DNA of 64,000 bases from Anthoceros angustus (Eukaryota; Plantae; Anthocerotophyta). This document shows positions 1 through 27,182 of this stretch, piece after piece. Below the pieces are notes generated by a model that ran no database searches, was not told the origin of the DNA, and saw only the letters and a list, made by a program, of their open reading frames with translations. A program made the translations under genes and the position numbers. The stretch is taken from assembly GCA_010909165.1 (NCBI GenBank), contig MU008170.1:1054001-1118000 (forward strand), in the 5' to 3' direction. How positions within the stretch are numbered: the stretch's first letter is position 1; each line of letters opens with the position of its first letter.

Positions 1-54
1 AGGTTGCTCGTCATCGAATCTTGCACGGCCCCTGTAGTGTCTTCGTTAGGTAGA

Positions 55-1330
55 GGATTCCTTGACAACCCATCGATTAGAGTGAACTCTACCCTGTTCG
101 ATGACAAAGTCATACTCACGGAGAATGAGAGCCCACCTCGCCGCCCGTAAGCTTGGCGTTCGTCATCAACCAATGCAAGGGTTGATGGTGGTGATTAGTC
201 GAAATTGATGTCCAAACAATGCGGACGAAAGTGTCCGATTGCCCTGCTCTGCAAGACATTCTCCTTCATAGGCGAGTAGTTGGACTCACTTTGGTTGTTG
301 CTCCGACGGCATAGGCAATGACATGTTCCTCTTCCTTGTCATTGATCTGCGCCAAGGCCCCTATCCGTACTTGCCAATCGATTAAAAAATCGAGCAGCTT
401 GAAGTTTGGATGACCAAGAATTGGCGAGCTCATGAGTCTACCCTTCAACTCCATGAAAGCGACTCCTCCTCTTGAGTCCAACGCCAAGTCACCAACTTCT
501 TCAACAAGTCATTCAATGGTGCGCAATCCGCTCATCCGCGGAATGAACTTCCTGTAGTAACACCAAACCCAAGAATGCCCTCAACTTGAGATGTCGTTTG
601 GCACAGGAATGCGCGATTGCCTCCACCTTGGTGGCATGCGGCGAGATCCGTCGCGTGATCCAATGACCCAAGTACAACACCTTATCCTCTCCAAATCGAC
701 ACTTCCTGGATGGGCCTTCAACCACGCGGCCGATCTAGCAAAAGGCTCGAAGATGTTGTAGATGCTCCTCAAAGGTATTCTGAAGATGATGACGTCATCA
801 ATGTAGCACTTGGCGAAATGCAAGTCCTTGAGCTCATTGTCCATGTACCTTTGGAAGCTGCGTTGGCGATGTCTTCAACCCAAATGGCATGTAATTCCAC
901 TCGTACAAGCAATCTACGCCCCCGAGCGTTTTCTTCTTGTCTTCTTCGGCAATCTCTACTTGGTGAAACCCTAGCCTCAAGTCCAATGTTGAGAAGAACT
1001 TGGCAGACCCAATGGTGTCGAAGATCTCTTGAGTCGGCATGGGATAGTGGTCATGTGGGATTCGCTCGTTCAACGGCCGATAGTCACCACACATTCTCCT
1101 CTCGTCCACAATCCATTCTCATCCTTCTTTTGAAGCCATCGCGGTGCGTCTGCGAGTTAGATCGTCGAATCAGCCCTAGCTTGAGAAGCTCTTGGCATCG
1201 ATTCTCAACCAAATCCCACTCGGCCTTGAGCCACATGCCTCTGCGGAACCTTTGGTTCATCCGTGGTCATTCTATGTGGAACTTCCCTTTGGTGTACTTC
1301 CCCATCTCTCATAGCGTGAAAGCAAACACA
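55..1330 (-). pseudogene. Reverse transcriptase and RNase H of element 1 (frameshifted)
   Basis: ORF fragments MCGDYRPLNERIPHDHYPMPT, FFSTLDLRLGFHQV, MPFGLK, CYIDDVIIF, KCRFGEDKVLYLGH, LRAFLGL and PILGHPNF...HVIAYA. Confidence 0.93.
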
Positions 1331-1554
1331 TGTCGCGATGCCTCCAACAACTCCTTTAGGCGGCGTTGATTGCTCTTCAACTCGGGCCTGTTAACCACTC
1401 ATGTGGGCTGGCTCGAGATGCACGCTTCCTCGTGCTCGCTCTCCTTGCCCTCAAACTCGCCTTCTCCTGTTGAGATGCGAGTGCGAATATCCTTCACCCG
1501 AACCCGGACCCGCCCCTTCTTGGTTTGAAGTTGGTAAGCGACTCCAGCTAAACA

Positions 1555-2450
1555 ACGGTCATCATGTTCACGTCAAATGCTTGCCCAAGCAATCGACACC
1601 GTTCCTTCTCGGTCACTCCGGTGTCTTCGTGGCTCGGCATCAAATCCATGGCCAACTCCCTCTCTGTGGTATTGGCTCTCCCAAACCTCGCCATGTCATC
1701 CACCACAACGCCGGGGCCATGGTTCTGAAGGCGTAAGACTTGGACTTAGACACAAAGGTTGGCCAAGCCGCCATGGGGTGTCCAGGCGTGTTCACAGGAA
1801 GTCGGCGGCTTGTCGATCTTGATGACTTGTTGGGCATGCCTTCCGATGCTAGCACATCCTTGACAACATGATTAGGTCGCTTGGTGAGCGACCTCGCACA
1901 CTTCAAATGTTCCAAGGAGCAAGGTTAGTCCACATGGACCTCAACCTATGAGCCCTCGAACCAAATTGAGTGCATCCAATAGAAGCTCGACCCAACACTC
2001 CTCGGATCGTGGCAAAGTCCTCCGAACTTGCTTCTTCACGCTCATGCATGGCACATTCTCCAACATGTATCCACAAGGCCTTTCTTGCCCTTTGGATCAA
2101 GCGCAAGATCCTCATCGGTCATAGAACAATGCTTTGTTGGATCCTTGAGACCTTGACCCTTACTGCAGAGGATAGTCCTTGACACTCCCAACTGCGATGA
2201 CAAGGTCCACCGGTTGCCCAAGACAACTCAAATGGGACAACCCTATCATGCGAACATCCATCCAGCCTTCCGGTAACCCTTCACGGCTCCACGTCGGAGG
2301 TTAGGTACTCCCCATCAAGTCTCTTACGCCACGCGGCACAATCCTTGCTTTTGGATCCGGGTCACAATGCACGTATCTTCGCACTTTGATGCCACACTTT
2401 AGCACCGCCCGGTCGATGCCTCCAAAGAGTTCCACGAGCACTATGCCTTC
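1555..2450 (-). pseudogene. C5-cytosine DNA methyltransferase domain inside the pol of element 1
   Basis: Manual translation gives motif I GIVLVELFGGI (~2415-2450), II/III AVLKCGIKVRRYVHCD, IV VDLVIA.WECQGLS (~2170-2212), VI GYMLENVP (ENV at 2052-2060), VIII FGSRAHRLRSMWTNL, IX ERELAM and X RCRLLGQAFDV, all in canonical order. Confidence 0.9.
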
Positions 2451-2859
2451 CGAGGTCGCCATGTGATGACACAGGTGTTTAGGTCACAACAGGCTCAACC
2501 CTAGGCAAGAACTTACATGAGTTCTCGGCTCATAGGAAGGTCCTCTTGCACCATCCTCCAGCTTTTGCGGCTCATTCTGCGTCCGGCTCCGTCACTTGAA
2601 GAACCTCCTCCGAGGGTGGTTGCAACCCTAGCTTGTTTTCCTCCTCCTCGTCGAAATCCTCCATCAGGTCGATTGCGGTTTAGACACACGCCAGAGGTTC
2701 AAGCACGTATGTCCTCTTCCTCTGGTAAACTGGGTGAGTTTGGCAATGAGGTTCTCATGATCCTTGCCATGCTGTAGAGGGATGCGGGCAATCCGTTCAT
2801 CGGTTTTGCTCAGCTTCTCCACTGGTCGATAGTAGACTGCCTTCCACAAATCCACCATG

Positions 2860-3160
2860 ACTCTGGTTTGTACAAAGCGTCCGCTCCCGGCAAGACATCA
2901 AAGTGTATGCGCATCAAGCGGTGTACCTCGACAAAGGTGAAGTCTGCTGTTCTTGGTTTGAATGAAACCTTGACTTGTACCTTGTCACCCCAACACATGC
3001 TCGTGGTCCCAGTGCGGTCTGGATCTTCCACTTGGTTTCCTTCAACCTTTCTTGGTGGAGACCCAACGCTTCCTTCACTCTTCTTCCAACGATCCGGTGT
3101 GCTCGGTGTCAATCAACACCCTCCTTGGTGCGAATCCATTGATTTCAATGTGCCTCTCCG
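2860..3160 (-). pseudogene. Aspartic protease of element 1
   Basis: HIEINGFAPRRVLIDT (D-T-G-type active site, disrupted), followed by a beta-rich segment ending FDVLPGADAL. Confidence 0.7.
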
Positions 3161-3543
3161 ATTGTTGACCAAAGCCACTCCCTCGTGCGACATTCCGCTT
3201 CTCCACGAGATGCTTGGCTCCGAGGTCAATGACATCATTGCCACTGTTGTGGCACATTGTGACACTTGCTTGCGTCTTCAAGGGTTGTCAACATCCGAGT
3301 CAAACCCGACTTCCTTCACGCTCAACCCCATGTCTTGTAGGCTGAAACATGGCATCTCCAGAAGCTTTTGTGCCATCGTCTCCGTCAGCAATCTGCGCAT
3401 GGGTTTCTCCACATCGCCCACTGGACTTTGATGTTGCTCCCACAGTTGCTCCTGTTGGCAATGGCTCAAACGACTTTGGCATCTTGGCATAGGTTCGGAA
3501 GAGGATCCCGAAGCTTCCTTCCGTGTCTTCCGCACTGCAGGTG

Positions 3544-4934
3544 TCAAGACGTCCTCTTCTTCCTCTGAGCTATCTTCTCTCGTAGCTGCCAGAGGTTTCT
3601 TCCCTGCCCTTGGATCGTCACGATCGCCATGTATCCAAGCTTGTGCTCATCTTCTTCGTCCTCGATGATGAACTGCTGCTCTCCTTGATCTTCGCCTTCC
3701 GCACTTCTCCAGCTTTGCAAGGCGTGCCACGTGTCCATCGCCTTCTTTGATGCTTCCGTTTCTTTTGTCCACGGGACTTGGCGGTGCCTCCTCCACGGCG
3801 CCTTTGCTCTTGATTTTGTGGATGAGGTTGGCGAGATGCATTGGCGGGGTTGCTGCTCGATAACCCGTAGGCCGCAATTCGGATGCTTCTCCCAACATGC
3901 CGCTTCATTGTGCCCGTACCTCCCACAGCTAGGGCATGGCTCCTCACCCTTGACTCCTCCGAATGCATGCTCGCACTCATGAGGGGAATGGTCCGTCCCT
4001 CGGCACCTCACGCAGGGGCTCGTCACTTGGGCTGTGTGGGCTGGCTTGTCTCGCCGAGCTCCTCCACTCTGACCTCCGCGTCGGTCATGTCGTCCACCAC
4101 TCCTACTTGTGTTGGAGTAATCACTTGCAACAGCACGAGAGAAAGTGTCAGCGGGCCCTATCTTGTCAGCCATCTCGTACACTTCCTTGAGGGTGTAGTG
4201 TTGCCTTCGTCTTTGTGCAGCTTGTTGCACCTTCATGCGCGTGCATATGGCAATGCCGCAAGTACTTCTCTGCGCCGGTCGGTCACTCATGATCTTGGTG
4301 TCACGTACCAACGGTCGATTCTTGATAAGCCATCTTCAGCTCGCGACTTCATCTTGAAGTGTCGGCTCGGAGATCTTCTCATCCGTGCTTGGAAACTCCA
4401 GGAAGATGTCAAACATCTCTTGATGGGATCGTGCCCACTCGGTGCCTTCTCCGTCTGCCGGTTCCTTGAGCTTGAACTGCTACTCACTGGTCCTCCATGC
4501 CGCTCAACCTCGCCTTGTGCTCGCGATAGCCCAATGCTTCATCCCCAAGTACTTGCATTTGGATGAAGCCGTGTATCGTGTGTCCGGTCTTCAATTCCAT
4601 CTCCGCACACACCCGTACTTCTCGATGAAGTCCTCCAGTGGCAAGGTGCCGCTCCTGTGAACAACTCCATTCGATCCTTGTCTCCTCCCATCTTGACGAC
4701 TCCTAGAGACAAGTCCTCCTCGCTGTCGCTTCCAGAGTTGTCCCGGCAGCACCAACGTGTCTTGTGTGTTGCCACTCACAGATCCTTCAAAGATTGTTGA
4801 TTGGGTCGCTGGGTTCCTCCGCGTCCTTGTGGTACCAAAATCGAGTGTTCACTTCTCCTCTTGGTCGGGACTTGAATTCGCCTCGATGGACTTCTTTGGT
4901 TGGTAGCTCCGTCCGGATCGAGTGTGTCAGGCAT
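3544..4934 (-). pseudogene. Gag of element 1 (frameshifted)
   Basis: Two zinc knuckles, CVRCRGTDHSPHEC and CPSCGRYGHNEAAC, and a capsid-like N-terminus (MELFTG...LEDFIEKY). Candidate ATG at 4934. Confidence 0.75.
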
Positions 4935-5168: not shown

Positions 5169-5354
5169 ACAAACTAGGACTTTTGGACAGAAAGTGAAAT
5201 CAATGGACTGATGACATACCCATGTCTATCCGCTTCCCTTATCCCTTGGAATCCGGGCCCAAGAGTAAAATACTCTTGTTTCTCCTTGGTTGGTTGGCCT
5301 TAAAAGGCCAGCCCCTGTGGAGGCCTCATTCCTCTCCTTGGTAGCTTCTTGCCT

Positions 5355-5640
5355 TCTTCCTCCTCTCCTTGGCCTTGGACTTGGGCTTCTTCGCCTCCTC
5401 TCCTTGGCCTTGGACTTGGGCTTCTTCGCCTCCTCTCCTTGGCCTTGGACTTGGGCTTCTTCCTCCTCTCCTTGGCCTTGGACTTGGGCTTCTTCGCCTC
5501 CTCTCTTGGCCTTGGACTTGGGCTTCCCGCCTCCTCTTGGCCTTGGCTTGGGCTTCTTCCTCCTCTCTGGCCTTGGCTTGGGCTGGCCTCCTCTCTTGGG
5601 CTTCTTCGCCTCCTCTGGCCTTGGACTTGGGCTCTTGGCC
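5355..5640. repeat. 35-bp minisatellite in the leader of element 1
   Basis: Unit tcctctccttggccttggacttgggcttcttcgcc starts at 5361, 5396 and 5431, then continues as degenerate copies. Confidence 0.9.
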
Positions 5641-5734
5641 TGCTTGGGCTCGTTCTCGCGTAGCCTCGCCTCGCGGCCTTGCTAGCCTGGCTAGCATCGC
5701 TGCTAGCCGCCTGGCATGCTCGCTCGCCTGGCAC

Positions 5735-5821: not shown

Positions 5822-5831
5822 GATCATAGCT
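5822..5831 (-). promoter_or_regulatory. Putative self-priming primer-binding site of element 1
   Basis: Minus-strand AGCTATGATC directly follows the LTR end (...GTTACA). It is complementary to GATCATAGCT starting at 5975, 30 nt downstream of the LTR TATA box. No TGG-type tRNA PBS is present. Confidence 0.65.
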
Positions 5832-6391
5832 TGTAACAACGGGAGTAGCTCGCACGTCGTGGCACAAACACACTCTCCCACGAGAACAACACGCAAATTC
5901 CTCACACATCGCTCACGGGTCATAGCTTTGGCCTCCTCACTCTTGCATTGCATATCTAGAGGACAAGCTATGATCCAGCTTGTCCTCAATGGAAGGGTCT
6001 ATATAGACCTCGGCATATATTCCTAAGATATCCTATTGGCATCGATACGCATGAAATATCCTAAGAATACACTATAATATGCAAGGAATATGCCAAAGCA
6101 TATTACTTGAGCTTATCCACTTAGCTATTGTATCCTAAGAATACACTATAATATGCAAGGAATATGCCAAAGCATATTACTTGAGCTTATCCACTTAGCT
6201 ATTGCTAACCATGTTTAATTAACACTAATCAATGCTTAATTAACATAAGCACATTAGATTAATTAACACTAATCAACGCTTAATTAACATAAGCACTTTA
6301 GATTAATTAACACCACTTACTTTTAAAGATAAGTAATTAGATTAATTAATGCTAATCAAACACTAAACCCAAGTGCGAGATTAGTATCACA
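5832..6391 (-). repeat. 5' LTR of element 1 (about 560 bp)
   Basis: On the minus strand it starts TGTGATAC at 6391 and ends TGTTACA at 5832. TATATA lies at 6005-6000. U3 has a 74-bp tandem duplication (6057-6204) and AT-rich ttaattaac repeats. The partner LTR is outside the window. Confidence 0.6.
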
Positions 6392-8688
6392 CCACGGCAG
6401 CGAGGCACCATACCTACCTATGGCGAAGATTGTGAGGGAGGTGATTGATAAGTTGGCTTGCCAGCTGATCGACTGAAGGGACCACCTGCCTTGGCCACAC
6501 ATAGCAGTGTACATAGTGTCAGGCGGATTGATCACGGTGATATGCTCCCTGCCATCAAAGCGATTGGAACGAGCAAGTAAGTCGAGGTCTGGCTCTGTCA
6601 ACACCCTCCAGGCGGGAGGCGGTGGACAATTTGAGTGGAACGAGTCCTATTCCGCACCATAGCATTCAAGAAAACGGAGGTGAGGTCGAATGGAGTATGA
6701 ACCGGCCAAGCAAGACATGTTCGTGTTCACCATGATGTCGCTATTGATTTTGAAGAAAAATTCGGATGGGCCATTGATGAGATGGTGCTCAAGTACAAGT
6801 CCTTTACCCGGAGATGGCTTTGAGGAAGATGAGCACGTTCTGGCCGGAGAAGCCCTTACATGTTATCGTGATTGCAAGGATCAAATTTTGCAAGATGCCC
6901 GATCCTTGCACGGCAGAGCAAAAGGACTTTGAAAGGAGACGAAGGAACATCGTCCAAATGGGCACTGCCATCACATTTCTAGTGGATGAAATGTTCAAGC
7001 CTGCGGAGATGTTCCGTGTCCCCTATCGAAAAGATCCAGAATGTCTAGATTCACCATCAAGCCCAATGAGGCCTCTTAGATCGGCATATTTGAGGCTAAG
7101 ACATTTGGTGAAGACACACGAGTGAAGACCATGCGGGAGGCCACAAATTTACATAGCCGCTCTTCCGTGGACAGAAGGGTAATTGCCAACTTCCTACACA
7201 TGCTACATGGCGCGGACTATGAGCTGAGTAGGCTTATGAAATGGCGGAGAGAGTCAGGAGGATGCATGACCAAGGCACGTATTGGGAGGAACACAACCTC
7301 GCTAAGGCAGCTGACTGTCACGCAACAAGAGCACAAGGAGGAGTTCCCATGACTGGCGGACTGCGAGCGTTGGCGGCACCTCGCCCGGGGAGCGGCAATA
7401 GTGCACCCGGCGGCTCCACAAATGCTCATGCGCGGGGTTCTCACAAAGCCTTTGAATGTGAGTTCAGGCGGGTGGCTAAGGAAAAGGAGGTGTGTAGGAC
7501 TGCGCCAAGACGGGCCACATACGGAGGCAAGATGTTGGCAAGCACACCCGGAGTTCAGCCCAAGGGGTTGGAGAGCAGTGGGCGACAAAATGAAGCCAAC
7601 CCGGTTACACAGGAAGGCGCTTCTAAGTGAGGTACATCGGTTGCAGAACAATTGGCGATGAGTGTAAGCACAAAGAGCCACCGACGCCGAAGAGTACTGA
7701 CTCGGACCAAGAAGTGTATGCGCTAACGACCGTAGGGGTGACCTACAGGAAATAGTAGCCGCCAAAACAAAAGGATTGGGACAAGGAGCCAACCAAGATG
7801 CCGGGATCCTTCCAGATGGAGGATCCACAGGCACATGAACTCCGCAGGCGGGAAGCCGCCCAACATGGAGCTCTTCATCGAGAAGGCAATGGACGTGCCC
7901 ATGGTCGCCTCGCGACTGGGAGTGAAGGCTACCCATTCAGAGCGATGCATGGATGAAAGGTGCATACCGGGACGCGATGTCCGGCTTCACCAACCTATGG
8001 GGAACATCTCGAAACCAGCTGCGGGAAAAGGGAGTCGCCATGGTGGACAATCGCCAAGAAGTCACGTGAATGGCTTAGCCGAATGCGTCTAGACACGGCT
8101 GGACCGCACAGGGATCCGTGCACTCTGTACCTATGCGTGATTGAGCCTAGCCATGTGAATGCACGTGATCACCACGTCCATGGGTACCAGTGGAGCAAGT
8201 AATGGGGATCACGAGGGATCCGGTTCGCATAGAGCTTAAGCCGTACCAAGGATGCGGCGGTTCTTGAAGTTCATTGCTTGGTGTCCAATGCAAGGAACTA
8301 TGATGTGCCGTTTACCAGCCACATGGACCAGCAATGGGAGTAGATCCACTTTTCGTGGCATTCTGATCATGACAGCGACGGGACTTCTCATGGTCCGAAT
8401 CCCGCTTAGTATGAGGAGAACTGGGAGAACACAGCAAGACTGCAGTGACCCGGATTAAGTGTTCATGGCCGAGGTGTGGAAGTCAAGAACTAACAGGGAG
8501 GAAATTCGGGACGGGTAGAGCGGATGCTTGCTTGTATGTCGAGCACAAGGCAATTGATGCAAGGGAACATCTCTACAGAGTGGTTCAGAGTGTCCTTAAC
8601 CCGTGAGTGCCGAGCGACCTAAAAGCTAGTTTTGAATCCGCCAAGCTGGGTCAACAACAAGGTGATCCGGTGGAAGGTGGGAGGGCAG

Positions 8689-9530
8689 GGCATTCATCTC
8701 ATGGAACTTTGCTCCGGGATCAGCGGGTTGGGCGGTGTTGAGAAGCGGCATTCGGATAAAGAAATACACATGTGTCGAAGGATGAAAGGCGCGTCGGTGG
8801 CGGGACTAGAATTATGCACGGATGCAAGGAACACGCCGCGATGATTAGTAGAGAAGCGATCAAGGGATGCCAAAGCCGGTTGCTGCGGACATCTTGTTAG
8901 TGGGAAAGCGTCAAATTGATGCCCTTGGATGCAAGGTGGATATGTTGGTTGCGGAGATGCAGAACTTTTCCTGTAGTCACGGCAATGGCATGGAATTAGC
9001 ATCGGAAGTCATCCGGATTCGAGGAAGTGCAAGCGACCAACCCTTCCCGTGGTACCTACTCGGCGTGTGGTGCATTCGATGAGCGGCGTCCCGAAACAAT
9101 ACGCAACCTTTCGTAGACCGGGTGGGAGAAGAATTCATTGTGGGCCGTGCGAGACGGTTCATATGCACATCGAGTGCGAAGCTTCTGGACCAATGTTGGC
9201 GATGACATCCCCGAGGCATCACCCATGGTTGGCAGTACCGTATGTAAAGGACATTCTGGGTCCAGAAGGCCACAAGCGATGCAGGAGATAAAGTACCCCA
9301 TTATCCGATTGAGCGAGGTGGGAAAGCCAAGAAGGCGTGGCCCACACTCGTCCAAGACCGCAATCTGTTAGGAAAGGGGAGAAGGCATGGTACTGGACAC
9401 AAAGGGAAATGAAGTAGGGGAGCCAACGATAACAGAGCGGGAACGTGCCATGGGATTTGGTGCAGATGGCACTTGCACGCCTGGTGTGTCGGAATCGGCC
9501 CGATGCAGGTTGATCGGGCAAGCTTTGACA
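8689..9530 (+). pseudogene. C5-cytosine DNA methyltransferase domain inside the pol of element 2
   Basis: Motif I GIHLMELCSGISG, then AVLRSGIRIKKYTCVE, ADI, a damaged motif IV VDMLVA..QNFS, VIII DGSYAHRVRSFWTN, IX ERERAMGF and X RCRLIGQA.DM. Colinear with the element 1 domain. Confidence 0.85.
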
Positions 9531-9719
9531 TGACACCGCATGCAATGGTTGATCACCGCGGGTTTGGCTGAGATAGCCATGAGCCGTGAGAATGGGGATG
9601 GGCGTGATCTGTGAAGGTGAACTTACCTCCGTCGGAGAAACAAGAACGTGCCATGTCAGCCTCGCTACTTTGCCACAAGAAAGGAACTATGAGAATGCAG
9701 TCGACGATTGGCAGATATG

Positions 9720-11075
9720 TGAAGATTTGCAACCAGCTGAACGACAAAGGATCCGAGACATGTTACTCAGAAATCGTGGTACCTTCGCGTTCAGTTGGGC
9801 CGAACTAGGGCGATATGACCGTATCAAGTTCAAGATCACTACCACCACCAATGAACCTGTGTTCCGAAGAAGACACAAACTAAGTCCCATGGAATGGGAC
9901 ATCGTAGACAAACGGTGCAAGGAACTAGCTGCGGCTGGGCTAATCAGGAAGTCAACATCGCAATATGCTGCAGCTACCGTGCTGCCACTCAAGAAGGATG
10001 AACATGGGGAATGGAAGGATAGGAGAATGTGTGGGGACTACCGAGCTCTGAATGAAATAACGCCCATGGAGCGGTATCCCATGCCCACGCCTGATGAGAT
10101 CTTTGACGCCATTGGTGAAGCCAAGTACTTCACCACCCTTGACTTTCGATCTGGGTTCAATCGAGCAGTGATTGAGGAGGAGGACAAGTGCAAGACAGCG
10201 TTTTGGGGCAAAGAGCAGCTATGGGAATGGGAGACCATGCCATTCGGACTGAAGAATGCATCCATATATTTTCAACGTGTGGCTGACTTGGAATTGCAAG
10301 GTGGCGTTCGTCAAGTGTTACATCGATGACATTCTGGTGTTCAGCAATAACCGGAGGAACACATTGAGCACTTAGAGGTGCTGTTGCAGCGCTTGGCCAA
10401 ATCTGGATTGAAGGCCCATCCCAAGAAATGCAAGTTCGCATACAGGGAGATTGAATACCTAGGGCACAAGATTGTGCCAGGGGGCGTGCTGCCACAATTG
10501 GCCAAAGTACAAGCGATGAGTCTCATGCCCAGACCAAAGGATGTGGCTGCCTTGAGGGCGTTCCTGGGCTTGGTGAACTATTATCGTCGGTTTGTAAGGG
10601 ACATGAGCAGAACCTGCAAGCCACTATATGAGCTACTCAAAAGGGAAACTCGGTGGCACTGGGGGCAGGAGCAAGCGTGGCAGAGTTGAAAGAGCAAAGG
10701 GGAGGCCAATGCTTAAGAGGCCCAACCAGTGCCCTTCGCCTCTATACACGGATTGAGCACGAGGCATTGGTGCGCAGGCCCAAGATGAGGAAGGAAGAGA
10801 GCGGGTTGTGGCGTGCGGCGGTCGAATAACACTGAGGCCAACTATTCGTCTATGAAGGGAGTGCCTTGCACCGTAGGCGTACACTTAGAGTATACCTATT
10901 TGGTCAAGTTTTCAATTGTCACGGATCACCGCCATCAATCGGGCCGATGACCAACATGAAGCTAAGCGGGAAGCTTGCTAGGTGGGCTCTCCTGCTATCT
11001 GAGTATGATATGCAAATTGTGCACCGCGCTGGAAAGGTACACCTCAACGCTGATGGGCTCGCAGGAACCCGATGA
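9720..11075 (+). pseudogene. Reverse transcriptase and RNase H of element 2
   Basis: RRMCGDYRALN, YPMPTPDEIFD, FTTLDFRSGF, MPFGLKNA, YIDD (~10319-10330), LRAFLGLVNYYRRF and KLARWALLLSEYD...HLNADGL. Confidence 0.95.
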
Positions 11076-11339
11076 GTGGGGCAGAAGATACCACCGGGGC
11101 GAGACAAGACTTGGATCATGCAACATTTGCCCGCAGTATTTGGCGATGCTATCCTTGAGGCGTGATCAATGACGAAGGAGGTCGAGACATATGGAAGCTC
11201 GAGCATGCCATTCAGCTGTTAAGGGATGGGCATGTGGCTGATGTGGACACAATGTCACCTCCGTGCCGCATGACGATTGCTCGCTATACATACAAAGACG
11301 GCAAGGTGTATGTGGTTGATCGAGGGGTGAGTAAGGAGG

Positions 11340-12601
11340 TGCCACCGTCGGGGAGCGAAGATCACTAGTGACCAAGATACATAGAACGTTGGGGCATTTT
11401 GGTGTCAAGAGGACACATCACATGTTGAAAAGTACATACTTTTGGTCAGGTATGTATGCAGATGTAGAGCAAGTGGTGGCGCGATGTGCTGCATGTGATG
11501 CAGTGAAGGCGAGGTTCAACAGCCAGGATGTGGTGCTACATTCGCTGCCCATCAGGGGACTATTCTTTCGGTGGTCAGTTGATTTGATGCCTGAATTGCC
11601 AGTGACCAAGCAAGGCAACAAGCACTGCATGTTGATGATAGAGCACTTTTCGAAGTGGGTGGAACTAGCCTTTCTCCCGGCCGAAGCTCCATACGACAGC
11701 CGCATTGCATGTTCTCGCAGACATATGGAAGTTGCGCGGAGGTGTTGACGGACCAAGGCAATGAGTTCCGCGGTGAGTTCCAAGCATTGCTGGATCGGAG
11801 CTTGATAGACCACCGCCGCACATCTCGGGATCATCCTCAAGCTGACGGATTGGCAGAACGGCTAGTGCAAACTTTTAAGGACGCTCTTCGCAAATACTGC
11901 ACTGAGGTTGAGACCAGTTGCTGGGATGAGTTGTTGCCATATGTTGCATTAGGATACAGGATCAGTGTGCAGGCTGCTTTGGGCAACTTCAGCCCATATT
12001 TCATCATGTTTGGGCGGAATGCTGTCATGCCAAACATTGTGGCAGATGCCTATTCTAAACCAGTAGATTGGGCACAGAATCCAGAGGAATGTTTCACAGA
12101 ATTACAAAATCGCGCCAAGTTGTTTCAGCGGGTAATTCCCATGGCCATGGATAACTTGGCCATTGCCCAACATCGGGACCAACTTCGATATGCCTTTACG
12201 CGAGGTGGCTCATGGAAACCCAAGGCGAGGAAATTCGAAGTAGGGGACTTTGTGTATTTACAACACCGACCATCAGGCACGTTGGACGTAAGCACTGGGC
12301 GCTTGATTTTGCGGGTGGTGAATGTGGGTGAGCAGGGCGTCATTGAATTGGAAGGTCAGGACGGACGACGTTGCAAGGAACACATGCGTCACTTGGCACC
12401 ATGCCACTTGCCGAACTTGGACACGAGGACTCAGCCACAGGCATGGAAACCACCAATTGACTTGCCTTGCGAACTTTGTGGCCACATTACTGACCCGGAG
12501 CTCATGATTCTTTGCGACCAGTGCAATCGGGGGTATCATGTGTTTTGCCTCGACCCCCTCTCACGGTGATACCCGATGGTGAATGGTACTCATCGTTGTG
12601 C
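11340..12601 (+). pseudogene. Integrase with C-terminal PHD finger (element 2)
   Basis: HHCC (HRTLGH...CAAC), core WSVDL / LTDQGNEF / HPQADGLAER, then PHD CELC...ILCDQCNRGYHVFCLDPPLTVIPDGEWYSSLC at 12468-12601 with one frameshift. Confidence 0.92.
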
Positions 12602-13132
12602 TTTTCCCGACTCAAGACAAGGGCTGGGGTCGGACGACTCACGCCGCGAAAGCTATCGAAGGATAAATACCTTAGGGTAAAACGTAAGCCGTCCGCTCAT
12701 TCGAGATAGCACCGGCGAGAGAAGGGCAGGAGCGTAGGGCGAAGATATCCAAGCGTGGCGGTGGCGCACGCGTGCGGGAGGCAAGACAATCAAAGGCCCG
12801 TGAGCAAAAAAAGCTCATGAGCGGGTTTGTGCGAGCAAAGCAAGTGTAGCGGGAGGCCTAACTGGCTCCAAGAAGTCGGAGATAGGGAGGGAATTGCCGC
12901 GAGCTCTCACCATCCTCGACGCCGCATGGTTGGTCACCGCGACTTGAGGATGCGCAACGGATCATCCAAGCCGACGATCGCTACGTCACCCAATCCGCGT
13001 GTCATAGACTACGCCGGTGAGCATGCGACGATTTCCTATGGTTTGAGTGGCGATTAGCCATCATAGTGGTAGCGAAGCGGTGGTGGTCTCGGAGGGTGGC
13101 AGCTGTGGGCACGCTAACCCGACGTCAGCAGG

Positions 13133-13980
13133 TTGCTAGGACAACATGGATCTGGAGGCGGACCATACCGCAAAAGCGTGCTTTCGCGGTGCATCATGAT
13201 TCGCAATTTCGACCGCCGGGAGGATAAGTGGCGCACGCCTTTGATACGGAAGTATCAACCTGGCAAGCCTGAACGGCCGGAGACCTTCCGGAGTTGCAGG
13301 CGTTCTTGCTTTACATAGAATCTCATCATGAAACATGTTCAGTTGAAAATTTCCCATATGACCACAAGGACCTCTTTGAGCTTGCAGGGAGGGGCATGAA
13401 CCGACAGACCTTTGTTTGGACAAGCTATTGTGAAGGTGCCTTTCGAAAGTTGGAGCATCACTTATTTATGCACCGGTCTTTGACCACCGCCCAAAGAAGG
13501 GTTTTGATGTAAAGCAGGAGAAACCGGCGCTTGAAAGTCTCGGCCCATTTTCACCGGAGAAGGCGGGGCGGTATGCCATCGGTTACCCTAGAGCATTTTA
13601 TCGGCTGTTTGCATGTTTGCGGACTGGCGTTCTGGAATGGGATGAACCAACAGCTGAATGCTGGTATTTGCTTAACGACAATGTGGGGGAGTTCTTGCGT
13701 GCTCAGTGCATTGAGAAACAATTTTATGTCAATGGTTTGAATGGCCCACAACTGTCTAGGGTCAAAACTGAGTTGGACAGTGACGAAGAGGAGGAAATCA
13801 TGGCTCGACATCGTGCCAGGGAGGCAGCGGTTAAGCAAAGCTCAAGTTGATGAGTACTTTGATCCCGAGGCGCGGTGGCACTCTTCCCGCTGTGGAGCTT
13901 TGGAGTCCGACAAACCATCAGAGCCTCAATTGCGTGACAGTATGTTTAGACGATTCTATAGGCGGTTTTACGGTATCTGA
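13133..13980 (+). pseudogene. Unknown accessory ORF downstream of element 2 pol (fragmented)
   Basis: Consecutive overlapping same-strand fragments read as globular protein sequence (AFLLYIESHHE...; ECWYLLNDNVGEFLRAQCIEKQFY...). No family recognised. Confidence 0.4.
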
Positions 13981-14036
13981 CGTGCCCAAGTGCTGCCACA
14001 CCTCGCACGATTGGTGGCAGCAACTTCGGTAGGGGG

Positions 14037-14713
14037 GCCATTTTGGTGTTTACCACCCACTTTTGCTTAGCATAGGACATTGTTGTTATCTTTGTGTTGA
14101 GAGTGTGTGAGGGTAAATTGAGGTTTAGAGATAAACCCGATCGCCATGCCGACCATGCGACCATGGCGCCGACACCGGCAAGTCGCGTCGATACATACGA
14201 TGTCCGAAGCACATGCGGATGATTGTGAGCGATGCTCATATGCATGGGCATGGGGGTGATGGGCATGCAGACTCACACCCGCCATGAACGGGCATAGCGG
14301 CAATCTGTTTGAAAGGAGCCGGCCGTGATCACGGCGGAGTTATGGCTCACGCACCCAGAGTCATGCGCCTGCCAAAAGTTGCCCATGACCCGGCGACGCC
14401 GAGCGGAAGGATAAAGGGACAATCCAGGAAGAGACATCACTTGATGTTTGTTCAGAGACAGATGCCCACACAGTTCCCATGTGGGCGGTGAATGTAGGGC
14501 TTTGGGAGTGAGAAGGGATAGCGGTGAGAATGTTTGACAAATCGCTACGGATGTGTGTTGTGAGTCTCGCGAATGAGTTTTGCCATTTTGGTGTTTACCA
14601 CCCACTTTTGCTTAGCATAGGACATTGTTGTTATCTTTGTGTTCGGTGTGTGAGGGTAAATTGAGGTTTAGAGATAAACCCGATCAGTGCCATGCCGACC
14701 ATGCAGCCATGGC
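14037..14713. repeat. About 130-bp direct repeat pair (14037-14167 and 14582-14713)
   Basis: gccattttggtgtttaccacccacttttgcttagcataggacattg...gagataaacccgatc...gccatgccgaccatgc occurs twice. Confidence 0.9.
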
Positions 14714-16849
14714 ACGACACTCGCGTCATCTCGAAGGGTCGTATTGAAGAAGGTGTGCTGCCTTTGCTTTGTGTGATTGACCCATCTGACTGCAGGGATA
14801 TCAAAACATTAGATGGAGGCCCATGTCTATTGCGGGCTAACTCTACAGGAGATGCGAGTACTGGCAACTGACCACAACACAATGTCGGACAAGAGGAAAA
14901 AGATGAACTTTATCGAGCAGGTCAGATACCTCAGGGATGAACTTCAGATTGCAAAGGGGGATGGTGTGACAATGAGCATGAACTGGAAGTTCAATTTATA
15001 CAAGGTGCTTGGGCTGATAGAGGATGACGAAGGTCGGGAAGATGAGCAATACAAGCAAAACAAAGTGGACAACCGGACACATATACTATGCATAGCAAAA
15101 CTGGAGGGAAAGGTGTGGGAAAACGTGATGATCTTCACCAAGTGGGAGGCGATGGAACTTCGAGCGGGCCAAACATGTTGCGGCAGTACTAGCAAGAAGA
15201 GCAAGGGCAAACGCAAAGTTGGAGAAGAGGTGAAGACGTGGAAAGCGTTTTGTTAAGCCCAAAGAGATGCAAGGAAACCATGGCGCGATTTCAAGGAATT
15301 CCACCGAGAGACGGGTCGAAAATGCTGATTAGTGTGACAGAAAAGGTTTTGACAGGTTTACTAGACTGAATGGTATGTCCAAGGAGGTGATATCTGAGAA
15401 AGAAACTTCATGTCATCCAAGTGGCGATGGCGAAACACTTAGGATGTGACTCCTTCGAGATGGTTAGGCGGGGAATACCCAATGCACTCTTCGGATGATG
15501 TTATTGCACGGTTTCAAACAGCTCGATGGAAAGATGCGTGTCATTTGTTTTAAGACTCATTGGAGTGGGGATGGCGCCGCATGCGGCCCTCTCATTTCCT
15601 TCGTTTGGTTGTAACAGTGTAGGGTGGGGAAGGCGCGGCATGCGGCCTTCCCCACCTAGCAGTTTTGACCGACTGACGGTGGCATGTGCAAGTGAAAGAT
15701 GTGCGATTTGAAAAACTACGGAGGACTTCCAGCTTTCATCGGAAGTGCACACATGGAAGGGTCCGGAGAACGAACAAAGGACCCTAGCGGACATGGACAT
15801 GGAAGAAGGCTGCGATCGTTCCTTTCCACAGTGTATCGTGAAATACCAAGTGGTAGCGAGAGATGTGTTGGACATCCGAGGGTCTTTACGGAAGAGGAAT
15901 TACACTTTATTGGTTATGGATGTGCCCAGGGGATTCAACAAGGAAAGCATGATGTAAAGATGGACCAAACACAGATGGGCACAGTGTTTCACTCTTTCCA
16001 TGACATGACGAGTTGTGAGGAAATCCGCATGATAGTTATGCATGGGGTGGAGGAGCTGCACACTGTGAGGGAGGCTATGCGACAGTGGTGCACTGGTGGA
16101 GGGATGGTCTCCTTCGTATGGGACAAAACTAACATGCATAATGATCAAGGTGGATATGATACCGTCGAGTACATCACGGTAGGGTGGGGTAACTTCGACA
16201 AGAAGAACAAGGTTTCAATGTTACCTAACACCGTCCTTGGCTCGTTCAATAATGGTCGCGGTCATTGGGCACAACATCGTCAAGAAGCTTCTTTATATGT
16301 CATTGGACAAGCTCGTGGTATGTGCTTATCGAGGCCATTAGGGTTGATGCACGAAGATGATCAACAACTTCTCCAAAGAAGGAGATTGGATATTAGATGC
16401 GTGTGCGAGGCGGGACGGCACCCTAGCATTGCTATTGCATCGCGTGGACTTGGACAAGCGATGTGAATTCATTCCCCAAAGGATACATGGATATGAGGTA
16501 CTTCAGGAGAGGAGGAATTGAATCATGAGCCACACCGACGAGGACCGCAGGCAAAGGAATTAAGCTTGTCAGGAAGGGTCACTCAAGCAGTCGTACCTTT
16601 GGGGTTCAACAGATGAAAGAGAAAACGGGCAAATCCTTGATGACGGGCGAGAGAACTACAGCGCGGTGTGCCATCAGACTACAACAGCGATCCTCTCGTC
16701 TCTTGGATGTGGAGAATGCCATGCAGGAGAACGACAACTTCGAGGACCCCGACAACGCCCTTCTCAGAAACGTCGATGTTGTGTTCGATAGCGTATCTAG
16801 GCAATGCCCACCCGAGACTCAAGCTGCTGGCGAAGATTTTGGTAGTTAG
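14701..16849 (+). pseudogene. ParB-like N-terminal domain plus beta-class N6-adenine/N4-cytosine DNA methyltransferase (frameshifted)
   Basis: N-terminal part PLLCVID...VYCGLTLQEMRVLATDHN. Catalytic-type YTLLVMDVPRGFN (15919-15930), then FVWDKTN...VEYITVGW, then AY.RPLGLM and MINNFSKEGDWILDACA..GT (16357-16425), then VDLD. Order IV...X-I is the beta permutation. Confidence 0.7.
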
Positions 16850-19594: not shown

Positions 19595-20024
19595 CTTTTA
19601 TTTATATTTATTTATAGATCATTAGGAGTATGCAGCCGTGAGGCTATGAAGCCTGAACAGGAATCAAGACAAGAATGAAGTGACATTTGGGAGAGCGTAA
19701 AAGCAAAGAAAGTAGATCAAACAAAGATCAGCAGACTAAAATAGCTTTGCTAAGGAACCTGCACTAAAAGTAGTCGCCAATCAGCTTGAAGTAAGAGATA
19801 AGTTTCTCGTGAGTTGGAAATCGAGGAGTTGGCGCATATCATAGTAAGAGCCCTGAAAAATCTGGTCCCACTTGTTGGGGTAGCCGAAAGATCGACTTGT
19901 GTCGGGTTTCTTAAGACATACATTTCGGCAAAATGGGTTTCTAGCGATGTTGAATCGCTGAAATAAGCTCAATACCATATATGCCCATCAGAATCGGGTG
20001 AGAGAAAGGACGAGACTTTACAAT
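19595..20024 (-). mobile_element. 3' portion of an RNase H-containing LINE, split by the CACTA insertion
   Basis: Continues the 29289 ORF across the TSD as ..SFL...MGH...FQRFNIARNPFCRNVC (LINE C-terminal Cys region). A-rich tail near 19595-19615. Confidence 0.65.
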
Positions 20025-20221
20025 CCCTACTAGAAAAGGGCAGTCATGTTACACTTTATCTTAAAATTTGGACCCCCCTTTGTTGCAATTATGTTGAAAT
20101 CTTGGGTTCTTGTTACACTTTTGGGACCCCTTGTTACAGTTAGGTTTGGAAACCGACCCTCCACCTTGTTACAGTCATGTTACAACCTTGTTGCAATTAT
20201 GTTGCAATGTAGTGAGAGGTG

Positions 20222-23200
20222 GTATGTGTCCCCTCTCAAAATTTCAACATAATTGCAACAACCAAAGTGTTACAACGTCTATTGTTACAGTTTCGCAGGC
20301 TTGGTACCGAACCTCCTCCCCATGGCCATCTACATTAACCCTTGTTGTTTTTACTCCCGTATTTTACCTGTGCCATTATTGTAATATATATACGGGGATG
20401 TACTTGTATTTTACGTGTATGCTTTCATTACCGTATTTCCGAGGTGATTATTCCAATACCTATACGCGAGCTTCTACGTATTTTGCTCGTGTACTTTTTG
20501 TGCCATATTTCCGTACTCATATTTGCAATATGCTCACCGACCGTCTTCGTATTTTATGTGTATTTTTCTACACCATATTCTATGCAATGTCTTATACGTC
20601 ACCCGTGTATCGTGCATTTGTATACGCCACTGATAATGTTTGTATACTTTCAAACCCATACAAAATTAAAAATACGACATATCCATATTTTAATGCACGA
20701 TACACATGCTAGTTCATCCAACCATCCACAATTGCGTTCTAGCGCGCTCCTTTTGCCGCGGAGTGAAGTGGAAGTTGTGGTGTGGATTTTCAGCTCCTTG
20801 GCCTGTGCATGGTACATGCCATGCCTACTCCACATCGTAGGTAGCTACGCATGGCTTGTGATTTTGGCCTTCCCCTTCCTCTTCCATTCTGCGGCCATTT
20901 TCCTGTTGTCATGTGCATACGTTTCTCCCCGTGTGGTATTAGAATTCTGCAATCACAGCCATGCATATGCTATACAAATGGCCTTTGGCCTGTAAGCAGA
21001 GAGAAATTGCTAGCTGGAAAATTGCAATTTGCATGCTCACCTTGGCCACCTTGTCTCTGATTTGTTTCCGCCCATTTCCTAACAACAATTTTGTGCTTGT
21101 CAACGTCCTCTCCATCATCGCAGCCCTCACCCGTATTATTCATGCTCCCCCATCCAGCTCTCCAGGCCTTGCTCTTGCTTTCCTCTTCCGGCCTCCTCCC
21201 TTCTCCACAACGTGTGTCACCTTTGCCGAAGCACCGCTGTATCGGTCCATGTTCTCGGCCTGAGACTCCACCAGGTGTGTATCTCATACAAAATTCGGCA
21301 TGGGCTGGTGTTCCTCTTCTTGGACCTCCCTATTCTCCTGAGTCCTCATCATCACCATGCCGTGACGCCATCAGCCCACCAAATATCTGCTTATCGAATC
21401 CCCTGGACAAATGCCTCATCTCTATATCTCGCCTTTCTTGTCCTCCAGCCCCCAATGACAGCCTTATTTCTTCAGCTGCACTAGGCTCACATGTCCTCAC
21501 CCCACGCTCCTCTCGAGTGGTCTTATTGCATTTGCGACACATCCTGTCTTGATGTTCCCTGCACACATACATTACATCTCGCACTTTGATAGATACTGCC
21601 ATTCCCTGCCTATGTACCTGGCCCCCTGCTATCAAGAGACAACACAAAGCTATCACTTGTTGGTGATGCCACACTCCCCAAGCTGTTTTCGTTGTCCACT
21701 TTTTTGCCCCCCTCGACACATCCACCTTGTCCCTCCCTCAAGCAACATGACCACCGCCATTCCACCAACCGCCGGGTTCACGAGTTGCTAGGACAACTAC
21801 ATCATTGCCCTCGCTATCCTCCACAGTGTCATCCGTATAGCCTCTGCCTGTCCTGTGACTACCATGCGATGGCCCCACCCTGTTAGCTGGGCGATAGCCT
21901 CTTGCACCTGTGACTACCATGCGATGGCCCCACCCTGTTAGCTTGGCGATAGCCTCTTCGCACTCCCCTAGCCTCACGGTGTGACCACAGGCTAGGTGGA
22001 TGAGGAGGATAGCCCAGTCGAGCTACCCTCCTCATCCTCCCCACCTTGTCTCGATTTGTTTCGCCCATTTTCCTGTTGTCATGTGCATACGCTTTCTCCC
22101 GTGTGGTGTGTTTGCCGGCTGCATACAATCCTTGGCCACCTCCGTCTCACACCATTTCCCTATTCTTGTTGTGCTATATTTTCTTACGTTTTTTTGCCTC
22201 CTTTGCGCGGCAACCAGCTGCCTTCCTCCTGCATGAGGTCAGCATTCAAACTTGTCCGTAGACATTGAAGGCCTGAAATTTGAAATTCAGCAGCCATCCA
22301 TGGCTTGCATGCATGTAAGTGTGAATAATGGCAGGAAGCAGCGAAGCGATTCCTGCCATCATTACTGCTTGCCCCCCAATGTCACGCGGCTTGAAATCAA
22401 TGTCGCACATATGTATGGTCAAGGGAAGGCAGTGTACTAGGGTACATTATACTATTTAGTGACTGAATATCATTAAATATAATGTGCAAACAAGACAATA
22501 GCCCCTAAGCCCACCCTACTCCGTAATTCTCCGAACACATCACTAGTCCACACACGTCACTACCCCAACTACGACCACTACTATGTGCCACCGTCCATGA
22601 GTTCCTACTCCCTCCATCCCCGAGCCGGTGTGGGAACAACAACTCCCTAATCTATGTTATCCTCCATCGTCTCCGGATGCAGCATGCACTGGATTATCCG
22701 CGATGGCCATACAAATGGGCCATCGATGGAGCGCACCCTACAAATGCAATGCCTCTTCATGTTTACACGGTCGAATCCCATGTACGACGTCTCCAATGAT
22801 GGTCTGGTTCCACTTGGTAACACTCATACCAACGAACTTCAACGATACAGGCTTATACTTCTCCCAAAAATGTCATGAACGGGAGGCTGCAGTTGGTGAT
22901 AATAGTACCTGGCTTCCTTTTTTATCTCTTGACCGTAGTGCAGTCAAGAGCGCAGCTGTTATAGTGTCCGAAGGCACAAATTTCAAAAACTCCAAACCCC
23001 CTTCAGTTTCCCACTGTGGCGAGGTCGAGTATTGCTTGCTCCTTATAACTGTCACAAACCCACGGTCCGCTTTTAACATGCAGAGGTTGGGCTGTACCTT
23101 CCACTTCAGATCTGGAGTACCACCTCCAAGGTTTGTGTAGCACAAGGCCAATGTTGTTTTCCACAATAACACCAATCTCCTCTTGGTCCACCCAGAAAGC

Positions 23201-26200
23201 TTCCCACCATAAAAACTCCCTTGATGTCACATAAGGCTCAAGTTCCGAAAGACCGTCCTTTAGATGAGCAACGGACAAACTGGGTGCTATGACAACCTAG
23301 CTGAAGGAGAAACGGGGATGGAAGGTTGCACCTATCATGCCCAATCCCTCTGTAGTGTTAATCTCCTAGAATACCCAATCATAATGTGTAGGGTGCGTTG
23401 GTCTTGTGGAGGAGGTAGGAGTCGATAACCAGAAGGTCACGTGTTCAGATTCCCTGGTCAGCACACGATTTTGCAATTGGACATGATCAGGGAGGCAAAC
23501 GGACGAGATGTATTCATGTATGTGTCCCTCTCAAAATTTCAACATAATTGCAACAACCAAAGTGTTACAACGTCTATTATTCTGATTTTGAGCTTGGTGA
23601 ACCTCCTCCCCATGGCCATCTACATTAACCCTTGTTGTTTTACTCCGTATTTTACATGCCATTATTGTAATATATACGGGGATGTACTTGTATTTTACGT
23701 GTATGCTTTCATTCCATATTTTCGAGGTGATTATTCCAATACCTATCTACGAGCTTCTACGTATTTTGCTCGTGTACTTTTTGTGCCATATTTCCGTACT
23801 CATATTTGCAATATGCTCACCGACCGTCTTCGTATTTTATGTGTATTTTTCTACACCATATTCTATGCAATGTCTTATACGTCACCCGTGTATCGTGCAT
23901 TTGTATACGTCACTCGTATAATGTTTGTATACTTTCAAACCCATACAGTCCAAAAATACGACATATCCATATTTTAATGCACGATACACATGCTAGTTCA
24001 TCCAACCATCCACAATTGCGTTCTAGCGCGCTCCTTTTTGCCGCTGCGGGAGTGAAGTGGAAGTTGTGGTGTGGATTTTCAGCTCCTTGGCCTGTGCATG
24101 GTACATGCCATGCCTACTCCACATCGTAGGTAGCTACGCATGGCTTGTGATTTTGGCCTTCCCCTTCCTCTTCCATTCTGCGGCCATTTTCCTGTTGTCA
24201 TGTGCATACGTTTCTCCCCGTGTGGTATTAGAATTCGCAATCACAGCCATGCATATGCTATACAAATGGCCTTTGGCCTATGTAAGAGAAATTGCTAGCT
24301 GGAAAATTGCAATTTGCATGCTCACCTTGGCCACCTTGTCTCGATTTGTTTCGCCCATTTCTAACAACAATTTTGTGCTTGTCAACGTCCTCTCCATCGC
24401 AGCCCTCACCCGTATTATTCATGCTCCCCATCTACCTTTCCTCTTTTTACTACTATTACCCTATGGAATACCTAGTTTTACTTAGTAGTTCCCACCGATA
24501 CTCGTATGAATACATATATATATATATATATGACATATACATACATAAATAACCTACAATTATCTTCTACATGTATGTATATATATATATATATGACATA
24601 TACATACATATCTATACATCATATATTTACGGATATGTATATATATGACATATACATACATAAATAACCTACAATTATCTTCTACATGTATGTATGTACG
24701 TCCACATCGTTTAGTAGTTTGTCCTTGAGCACTCAATACCTTTGTGCCTACGAGTTTGTGTACTGCAGCTACCCATGTTTGCTATGCGCCGGCGTGGGGT
24801 TGTTTGGCTCCAAGTCCTCCCTCCTTCTCTCTCCCCTAGACAAGCGCCTCATGTCCGTTACGCCTTTTTGCCCCCTCGACCATGGGCTGGTGTTCCTCTT
24901 GGACCTCCCTATTCTCTCCGAGTCCTCATCATCACCATGCCGTGACGCCATGGCCCCACCAAATATCACGCTTATCGATCCCTCCGGACAAATGCCTCAT
25001 CTCTATATCTCGCCTTTCTTGTCCCTCCAAATTTCAATTATTTCTTCAATGCACTAGGCTCATGTCCTCACCCCACGCCTCCTCTCGAGTGGTCTTATTG
25101 CATTTCATCACCTTGATGTTCCCACACATACATTACATCTCGCACTTTGATAGATCGCCATTCCCGCCTATGTACCGGCCCCTGCTATCAAGAGACAACA
25201 CAAAGCTATCACTTGTTGGTGATGCCACACTCCCCAAGCTGTTTTCGTTGTCCACTTTTTTGCCCCCCTCGACACATCCACCTTGTCCCTCCCTCAAGCA
25301 ACATGACCATCGCTCGTTCTTGCCCCAACCACGTTGGTTCCTGGTGTTGCTAGGACAACTACATCATTGCCCTCGCTATCCTCCACAGTGTCATCCGTAT
25401 AGCCTCTGCCTGTCCTGTGACTACCATGCGATGGCCCCACCCTGTTAGCTTGGCGATAGCCTCTTCGCACTCCCCTAGCCTCACGGTGTGACCACAGGCT
25501 AGGTGGATGAGGAGGATAGCCCAGTCGAGCTACCCTCCTCATCCTCCCCACCTTTCTACAGCCTCCTGTCGTCGGTGCCATTGCAAATACCTCCCGACTG
25601 TGGTGTGTTTGCCGGCTGCATACAATCCTTGGCCACCTCCGTCTCACACCATTTCCCTATTCTTGTTGTGCTATATTTTCTTACGTTTTTTTGCCTCCTT
25701 TGCGCGGCAACCAGCTGCCTTCCTCCTGCATGAGGTCAGCATTCAAACTTGTCCGTAGACATTGAAGGCCTGAAATTTGAAATTCAGCAGCCATCCATGG
25801 CTTGCATGCATGTAAGTGTGAATAATGGCGAAATAAGCCGATTCCCACATTATCGCACTTGCAATGTCACGCCGCTTGAAATCAATGTCACATATGTATG
25901 GTCAAGGGAAGTGTACTAGGGTACATTATACTATTTAGTGACTGAATATCATTAAATATAATGTGCAAACAAGACAAGACAGCCCCTAAGCCCACCCTAC
26001 TCCGTAATTCTCCGAACACATCACTAGTCCACACGTCACTACCCCAACCACGACCACTACTATGTGCCACCGTCCATGAGTTCTTACTCCTCCATCCCCG
26101 AGCCGTGTGGGAACAACAACTCCCTAATCTATGTTATCCTCCATCGCCTCACGCAAGATGCACTTTTGGATTATCCGCGATGGCCATACAAATGGGCCAT

Positions 26201-26930: not shown

Positions 26931-27137
26931 TCACACGAAGGGTATTTTGATTGAGGCGACATGATTGGAGGCAAGGGGGATATGTATATGTATATGTATA
27001 TACATGTGCCATGAAAGATACTGGGGCCATGTGTACATAGTATACATGCAATTTTGTATGTCTATTTGGAATGGAAATAAATAAAATATAGCGATTGCAA
27101 TTCACACATATCTATACATCATATATTTACGGATATG

Positions 27138-27144
<7 letters not shown>

Positions 27145-27180
<36 letters not shown>
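27145..27180. repeat. (TA)n microsatellite; equivalent tracts near 24515 and 28750
   Basis: Directly visible. Confidence 0.95.

Positions 27181-27182
<2 letters not shown>

Follow-up and report, generated by a model that had tools for sequence, protein, structure and literature searches.

The window (the whole 64-kb stretch of DNA that was analysed) contained a member of a multi-copy Ty3/Gypsy retrotransposon family, element 1, that encodes a C5 cytosine methyltransferase (DNMT) domain within Pol, between the protease (PR) and the reverse transcriptase (RT). Judged from sequence comparison, this domain is DNMT3-like specifically, and we infer with moderate confidence that the enzyme methylates the cDNA of its own element before integration. 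A second, older element (element 2; 6400-14720) lies on the plus strand, opposite to element 1, and the RT and RNase H (RH) regions of the two shared ~47% identity. The features assigned to element 1 were as follows:

1..560, minus strand: RH, running past the window edge (PF17919, E 1e-4)
561..1377, minus strand: RT, with YIDD at 805-794 (PF00078, E 2e-8)
~1551..2474, minus strand: DNMT3-like C5 cytosine methyltransferase domain with motifs I-X, in three broken frames (profile, and alignment with relatives)
2819..3203, minus strand: aspartic protease, with active-site LIDT at 3116-3105 (three collinear pieces against P0035 and P0046, summed E ~6e-4)
3799..4419, minus strand: gag, with two Cys/His knuckles at 4014-3895 (tblastn to P0035, E 5e-9)
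5324..5644, no strand: ~35-bp tandem repeat array in the 5' leader (repeat families D12 and D13)
5822..5834, minus strand: putative self-priming primer-binding site, immediately internal to repeat A (complement of 5975-5963)
5843..6392, minus strand: repeat A at the 5' end, comprising promoter, R and part of U5 (probable limits, set where sibling contigs jump in depth or have loose ends)
5963..5975, minus strand: predicted transcript 5' end, the candidate self-primer (13-nt perfect complement of 5834-5822)
6000..6005, minus strand: TATA box in repeat A

The integrase (INT), PHD finger and 3' repeats of element 1 fall beyond the window, and its domains were read up to RH.

The methyltransferase domain of element 1

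The first-pass annotation had placed a C5 methyltransferase at 1555..2450, between the protease and RT of this Gypsy element, with motifs I, II/III, IV, VI, VIII, IX and X in order. All of these were located on the minus strand, in three frames: motif I (ELFGG, 2432-2418), motif II (RRYVHCD, 2381-2361), motif III (DVRMI, 2258-2244), VDLVIA (2210-2193) and, in a different frame, motif IV with the catalytic Cys (WECQG, 2190-2176), motif VI (LENV, 2063-2052), motif VIII (AHRLRSMWTN, 1953-1924), motif IX (ERELAM, 1664-1647), and motif X (LLGQAFD, 1592-1572). The proposed position also held, with LIDT of the protease upstream and YIDD of RT downstream. Motif I, the catalytic Cys, Glu-Asn of motif VI and Arg-x-Arg of motif VIII were all retained. 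Motif IV of C5 methyltransferases is, in its textbook form, P-C-Q; that of element 1 was Trp-Glu-Cys-Gln, with Glu in place of the Pro before the catalytic Cys.

The DNMT of element 1 had no open frame in the assembly, and a homology search with a single broken frame gave no match. When RT of element 2 was used as the query, five polyproteins were obtained. In one of these, P0001, PF00145 precedes RT, and the DNMT domain aligned along 2450-1551 of the window. A profile built from 12 intact relatives matched element 1 in four pieces in three frames (i-E 1.5e-11, 9.2e-15, 3.3e-9 and 2.1e-10), and the only other matches across the 64 kb were in element 2 (9138-9569, i-E 4e-19). The top domain score on element 1 was 50.1 bits, versus at most 3.0 in 300 shuffles, which bore out the methyltransferase call and widened its extent to ~1551-2474. 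The outcome of the proposed Pfam check was divided: PF00145 was found in none of six broken frames read with X at stops (three for each of the two elements), but in 8 of 11 intact relative proteins and 7 of 10 intact domains. The window DNMT was 32-36% identical to the relatives' domains tested.

A profile of ten intact domains ranked DNMT3A (6e-23) and DNMT3B/3C (2e-20) first in the PDB, ahead of DRM (2e-13 to 9e-11), M.HhaI (7e-9) and DNMT2 (2e-4). The AlphaFold model of the P0036 DNMT domain (pLDDT 89) gave, in Foldseek, a TM of 0.71 and an E of 4e-20 with DNMT3A. These two comparisons, made with relatives' domains that are 32-36% identical to that of element 1, placed the relatives' domain nearer to DNMT3 than to DRM, DNMT2 and bacterial enzymes. 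The fold and motif order are common to cellular DNMT3A/3B and plant DNMT3/DRM, except that the order is unpermuted in the elements, contrary to DRM. The element domain differs from cellular DNMT3 in its low identity (~22% in the structural alignment), in having Trp-Glu-Cys-Gln where the latter has Ser-Pro-Cys-Asn, in insertions that follow motif II and others within the target-recognition part, and in lacking PWWP and ADD. Only distant phage/viral methyltransferases (24-51% identity, best E 1e-13) were found in IMG/VR, three to five of which were used as an outgroup.

Since exons of the host genes for a DPP4-like peptidase, a rhomboid and a flavodiiron protein were also frameshifted, indicating uncorrected indels in the assembly, part of the damage to element 1, and many of its breaks, are likely to be assembly errors. 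Frameshifts within exons were also present in RCL1. The flavodiiron protein, DPP4-like peptidase, RCL1 and an apparently intronless rhomboid occupy 41900-45200, 46400-49500, 49900-51600 and 33800-35217, respectively, and 35800-36700 contains a member of the plant gene family PF09713 (A_thal_3526). Fourteen introns identified by eye measured 83-182 nt (median ~108), with six boundaries off by a few bases. The flavodiiron family is absent from angiosperms, according to the available text of PMC6598058, so the gene in the window points to a non-flowering host. The remainder of the window contained large imperfect duplications with 1.6-5 kb spacing and (TA)n runs at 20000-29300 (probably another repeat family), a LINE RNase H fragment (29281-30334), a Copia gag-integrase fragment (59178-60913), and two related GC-rich repeat-like stretches (54600-58700 and 61300-64000).

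Sibling copies, relatives and descent

The absence of the domain from sibling copies had been named beforehand as the sign of a one-off insertion. Sibling contigs in three public DNA runs (X1-X3, coded as three organisms) reached a similar depth over the DNMT bins and over the gag and protease bins, so a one-off insertion does not account for the domain. In X1, the summed contig depth, which is not equivalent to copy number in any of these runs, was 696-2286 for DNMT and 634-1438 for gag/protease. At several of the break points, siblings in X1-X3 had small indels relative to the window; a further run, possibly of RNA, yielded only seven short pieces.

Element 2 had the same domain order, in a more decayed state:

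6400..8310, plus strand: probable gag and protease (LDTAG at 8089-8103), tentative (translations by eye; no Pfam match)
8680..9570, plus strand: degenerate DNMT3-like domain, with motifs VIII-X clear and I and IV decayed (profile)
9607..12601, plus strand: RT, RH, INT and PHD finger (Pfam, tblastn)
14032..14720, plus strand: probable 3' end, consisting of a G-run, repeat B (14037-14175), a 406-bp spacer and a second repeat B (14582-14720) (93% direct repeat)

Its DNMT received almost no coverage in X1-X3. Among solved PHD structures, those of ATXR5, MLL3 and UHRF1 were closest to its PHD finger; the ATXR5 and UHRF1 PHDs are readers of unmodified H3 tails. Between the PHD finger and the G-run, an extra coding-like stretch (12620-13850) had no Pfam match. 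Because the 5' end of element 1 abuts the probable gag start of element 2, the former may be nested in the latter.

The claim that the DNMT is encoded by pol was upheld by intact relatives (P0036, P0031 and P0001), in which it lies within the Pol reading frame and with which the window is collinear. A single 2352-aa frame of P0036 contains the knuckle, protease, DNMT, RT, RH and INT, and P0031 has the one-frame order DNMT-RT-RH-INT-PHD, with the PHD finger last. The PR-RT-RH-INT order of Ty3/Gypsy was assigned from predicted domains up to RH in element 1, from RT to INT in element 2, and as a whole in P0036. A second order, RT-RH-DNMT-INT-PHD, was observed in P0037-P0043 and at L089, L094, L096-L098, L100, L140, L150 and L152.

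Among 80 metagenome loci, several of which are repeats of one insertion, DNMT was preceded by PR or gag, followed by RT, or both, in 68; nine had DNMT after RH or before INT, and three were uninformative. The catalytic Cys was kept in 75 of the 80, motif VI Glu in 67 and Asn in 68, and Glu preceded the catalytic Cys in 63. With an E limit of 1e-30, a library-wide profile search gave 541 clusters. The best 150 of these comprised 99 with RH-DNMT-INT, seven with PR-DNMT-RT, 43 with the domain alone and one other, as found with a profile in which seven of the ten members were of the RH-DNMT-INT order. The residue before the catalytic Cys in the same 150 was Glu in 82, Pro in 40, Ser in four and not read in 24; Pro-Cys and Glu-Cys forms were each present in both domain orders. 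P0036 and P0031 carry Glu-Cys, and P0038 is a Pro-Cys member.

The dN/dS values of DNMT were 0.07-0.13 in three between-subfamily pairs of relatives, and those in 29 decayed relative copies were 0.47 for DNMT, 0.40 for RT and 0.64 for a spacer. These values indicated that the DNMT is under purifying selection in the relatives.

Trees of DNMT and of RT-RH (with L160 and L066 left out of the former and L082 out of the latter) both split the two domain orders with supports of 0.78-0.89, and both paired elements 1 and 2, with the AT-rich metagenome families placed apart. A DNMT tree of 133 rows, restricted to rows of at least 250 columns and excluding element 2 and methyltransferase-only proteins, united all 21 PR-DNMT-RT rows in one clade (0.80), with element 1 as a long basal branch. 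Named Closterium proteins, three of the seven PR-DNMT-RT representatives among the best 150 of the 541 clusters, fell into the same clade as element 1 (support 0.80). All trees were made by FastTree, with modest supports (0.57-0.89), and one PR-DNMT-RT clade that includes Closterium is weakly supported. The larger sister group carries DNMT after RH, and the DNMT moved once within Pol. The Atlas cluster nearest to the P0031 domain was eukaryotic, most commonly Streptophyta. Inheritance from algal ancestors fits these data, with transfer as the alternative. The proposed extension of such elements to a land plant therefore stood in part: the flavodiiron gene and short introns indicated a non-flowering plant, likely a land plant, while the same type of element occurs in the alga Closterium. 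A hornwort-like host is somewhat more likely than not, and a zygnematophyte alga or Selaginella less likely.

Putative self-priming and the split terminal repeats

At the 5' end of element 1, the depth jumped, or sibling contigs had loose ends, at 5843 and 6376-6392; these contig ends begin with TGTCA, a terminus also found in the relatives. The transcript start, a prediction from the TATA box, lies 30 nt behind the box at 5975. The 13-nt complementarity between 5975-5963 and 5834-5822 was well beyond chance: in 20,000 shuffles, no complement was as long as 11 nt. The same layout was repeated in all seven relatives tested, and no tRNA-type primer site was found when sought in the relatives. 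A full-length fold favours a local hairpin that requires bases upstream of the predicted start. We assigned to element 1 a putative Tf1-like self-priming signal, in which the transcript would pair through its own 5' end with the primer site.

Twelve relative loci, of which L120 and L123 are one insertion, had the arrangement A-body-G-run-B-A-B, with a TGTCA-like start and a GACA-like end. Their target duplications were exact 4-bp copies in five and had at most one mismatch in ten, and the B/A joint was an inverted repeat with a 2-nt spacer. TG..CA ends with a target duplication, typical of Ty3/Gypsy, were thus established in the relatives only. In element 2, both repeat B copies terminate in GACA, and the 406-bp spacer between them is a candidate A, of which no 5' copy was found within the window. 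The split repeats (A-coding-B-A-B) are therefore represented by the 12 loci, by B-spacer-B in element 2, and by the 5' A and sibling loose ends in element 1.

Since the primer site follows A and the G-run precedes B, the ordinary LTR would correspond to B+A, and the integrated form to a two-LTR circle opened by the integrase at the internal joint. A-body-B forms were found at L090, L093, L095 and L133, and exact 4-bp duplications in four of five such forms; they fit products of one-LTR circles or B-to-B recombinants. On the other hand, reverse transcription itself may produce the A-B-A-B ends through DIRS/PAT-like template jumps between the split repeats, so that the cDNA is linear and its ends are already complete. 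This route, which we regard as possible but doubtful, would yield an integrated form identical to that of the circle route, and the available text of PMC5890265 compares the repeats with those of DIRS. However, an LTR of B+A suits the positions of the G-run and primer site, the B/A joint forms an inverted repeat around a 2-nt spacer, and the A-body-B forms with exact duplications suit one-LTR circles, although B-to-B recombination gives the same structure.

Proposed self-methylation, its alternatives and known systems

Plant hosts restrain transposons mainly through DNA methylation, and an element with its own de novo methyltransferase turns this defence around, which has been a puzzle since 2018. 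In the mechanism that we favour, the gag-pol polyprotein would be packaged and cut by the protease, leaving DNMT beside RT in the particle; the first ~13 nt of the transcript would prime the minus strand, as in Tf1; and DNMT would methylate the new double-stranded cDNA. The cDNA would then circularise, and the integrase would open the internal TGACA-NN-TGTCA junction to give the permuted repeats, while, at the target, the C-terminal PHD finger may recognise unmodified H3 tails. The gain for the element would be a new copy that arrives pre-marked like host heterochromatin. The idea of packaging and cDNA methylation was already put forward in PMC5890265, as its available text states.

The kept catalytic residues, the selection, the position of the domain and the activity of DIRS-borne DNMT3 domains, which methylate CG de novo in yeast (available text of PMC5890265), together make self-methylation of the cDNA the probable, if by no means certain, role. 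Against it stand the Glu-Cys of motif IV, the Klebsormidium Gypsy DNMT domain, which gave no methylation in yeast (a result termed inconclusive by its authors in the available text of PMC5890265), the lack of CpG depletion, and a decay spectrum explained by the host. The CpG o/e values of the two elements were 0.79 and 0.76, compared with 0.47 in the Copia and LINE of the window, and there was accordingly no footprint of CG self-methylation. The decay of relatives' copies (CG, 27%; CHG, 31%; CHH, 10%) is explained by host methylation. The CWG depletion of element 1 (o/e 0.54) was considered as a self-methylation footprint and rejected, since unrelated metagenome Gypsy elements were equally or more depleted (0.09-0.57); assembly errors may add to it.

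Some of the same observations would suit a non-catalytic, DNMT3L-like module that binds DNA or chromatin and shields the cDNA or steers integration, the change from Pro to Glu marking lost activity: Glu-Cys itself, the inactivity of the Klebsormidium domain in yeast (PMC5890265, available text) and the absence of CpG depletion. However, motif I, the Cys, Glu-Asn of motif VI and Arg-x-Arg of motif VIII are all retained, and the occurrence of Pro-Cys and Glu-Cys in each domain order looks like tolerated variation; we consider loss of catalysis fairly unlikely. An active enzyme might instead act chiefly on host DNA at or around the insertion, or on other copies in trans, through an integration complex with the PHD finger. 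The juxtaposition of DNMT and INT in 99 of the best 150 representatives, and the resemblance of the PHD finger to the ATXR5 and UHRF1 PHDs, are in keeping with such a target, but the cDNA would be the nearest substrate for a DNMT between the protease and RT, as in element 1, and a host target is, in our estimate, unlikely. Finally, the broken copy and the raw frames without a Pfam match might be taken to mean that a host DNMT3 fragment was captured once, or that the assembly is chimeric, and that the domain does nothing for the element. This reading was refuted by the same order in element 2, siblings in three runs, the 541 clusters, one-frame relatives, the 80 metagenome loci, purifying selection in relatives and a domain without introns, and is very improbable.

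If the preferred reading, methylation of the cDNA by the element's own enzyme, is true, it would be readable directly from native extrachromosomal DNA of a probable land plant. The recent, abundant family, with all catalytic residues, a PHD finger paralleling the histone reader of DNMT3 and odd ends, makes it testable on native DNA. We also suggest, tentatively, a broader picture of a large, old green-plant Gypsy lineage (hundreds of clusters, two orders), of which the Klebsormidium elements show only a small part. It would have come down by inheritance to several groups of land plants, and its family in the present host is recent and abundant. The members of the lineage would combine an active Glu-Cys DNMT3, an H3-reading PHD finger and self-priming with integration from a cDNA circle that is opened at an internal junction, similar to IS3/IS30 circles but with a retroviral-type integrase. 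Because of its permuted repeats, this lineage could have escaped LTR-finder surveys.

The precedent cited in the first-pass annotation, DNMT-carrying retrotransposons in Klebsormidium and Symbiodinium, was correct according to the available text of PMC5890265. No report of a DNMT-bearing Gypsy element in land plants was found in the literature searched, which contained few subscription papers; two later papers place such elements in 'streptophytes', with no species named in their available text. In a hornwort, silent methylated gene models were enriched in 'N-methyltransferase activity' (32/264 versus 39/7615; PMC10952607, supplement file 4, the part at hand), which perhaps reflects transposon-borne methyltransferases.

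The closest known system is KnitGypsy-Dnmt3 of Klebsormidium nitens (de Mendoza et al. 2018, PMC5890265), which, in the available description, shares the Gypsy domain set, a DNMT3-type domain in Pol, catalytic residues, purifying selection and split repeats, there called DIRS-like. Judged against that published description, the present element differs in its host, a non-flowering plant with short introns that is likely a land plant. Placement within Pol, the PHD finger, self-priming, target duplications and Glu-Cys are reported here and absent from the available text on KnitGypsy-Dnmt3. SymbioDIRS-Dnmt3 and SymbioLINE-Dnmt (PMC5890265, available text) have a retrotransposon-encoded C5 methyltransferase in common with it, but use tyrosine recombinase or LINE machinery; the SymbioDIRS DNMTs belong to the DNMT3 type and methylate CG in yeast. 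EpiLTRs (bioRxiv 10.64898/2026.05.21.726589, available text) also encode a C5 methyltransferase, but theirs is sister to DNMT4 and accompanied by DAM and a chromodomain. The Tf1/Sushi-type elements of the plant Tcn1 clade (Neumann et al. 2019, PMC6317226) share the lack of a tRNA site and the self-complementary 5' end, but have a chromodomain and ordinary LTRs instead of the PHD finger, DNMT and permuted repeats found here, and the word 'methyltransferase' is absent from the available text of that paper. The kind of element is known from Klebsormidium, and the one described here is a new member in a further host lineage.
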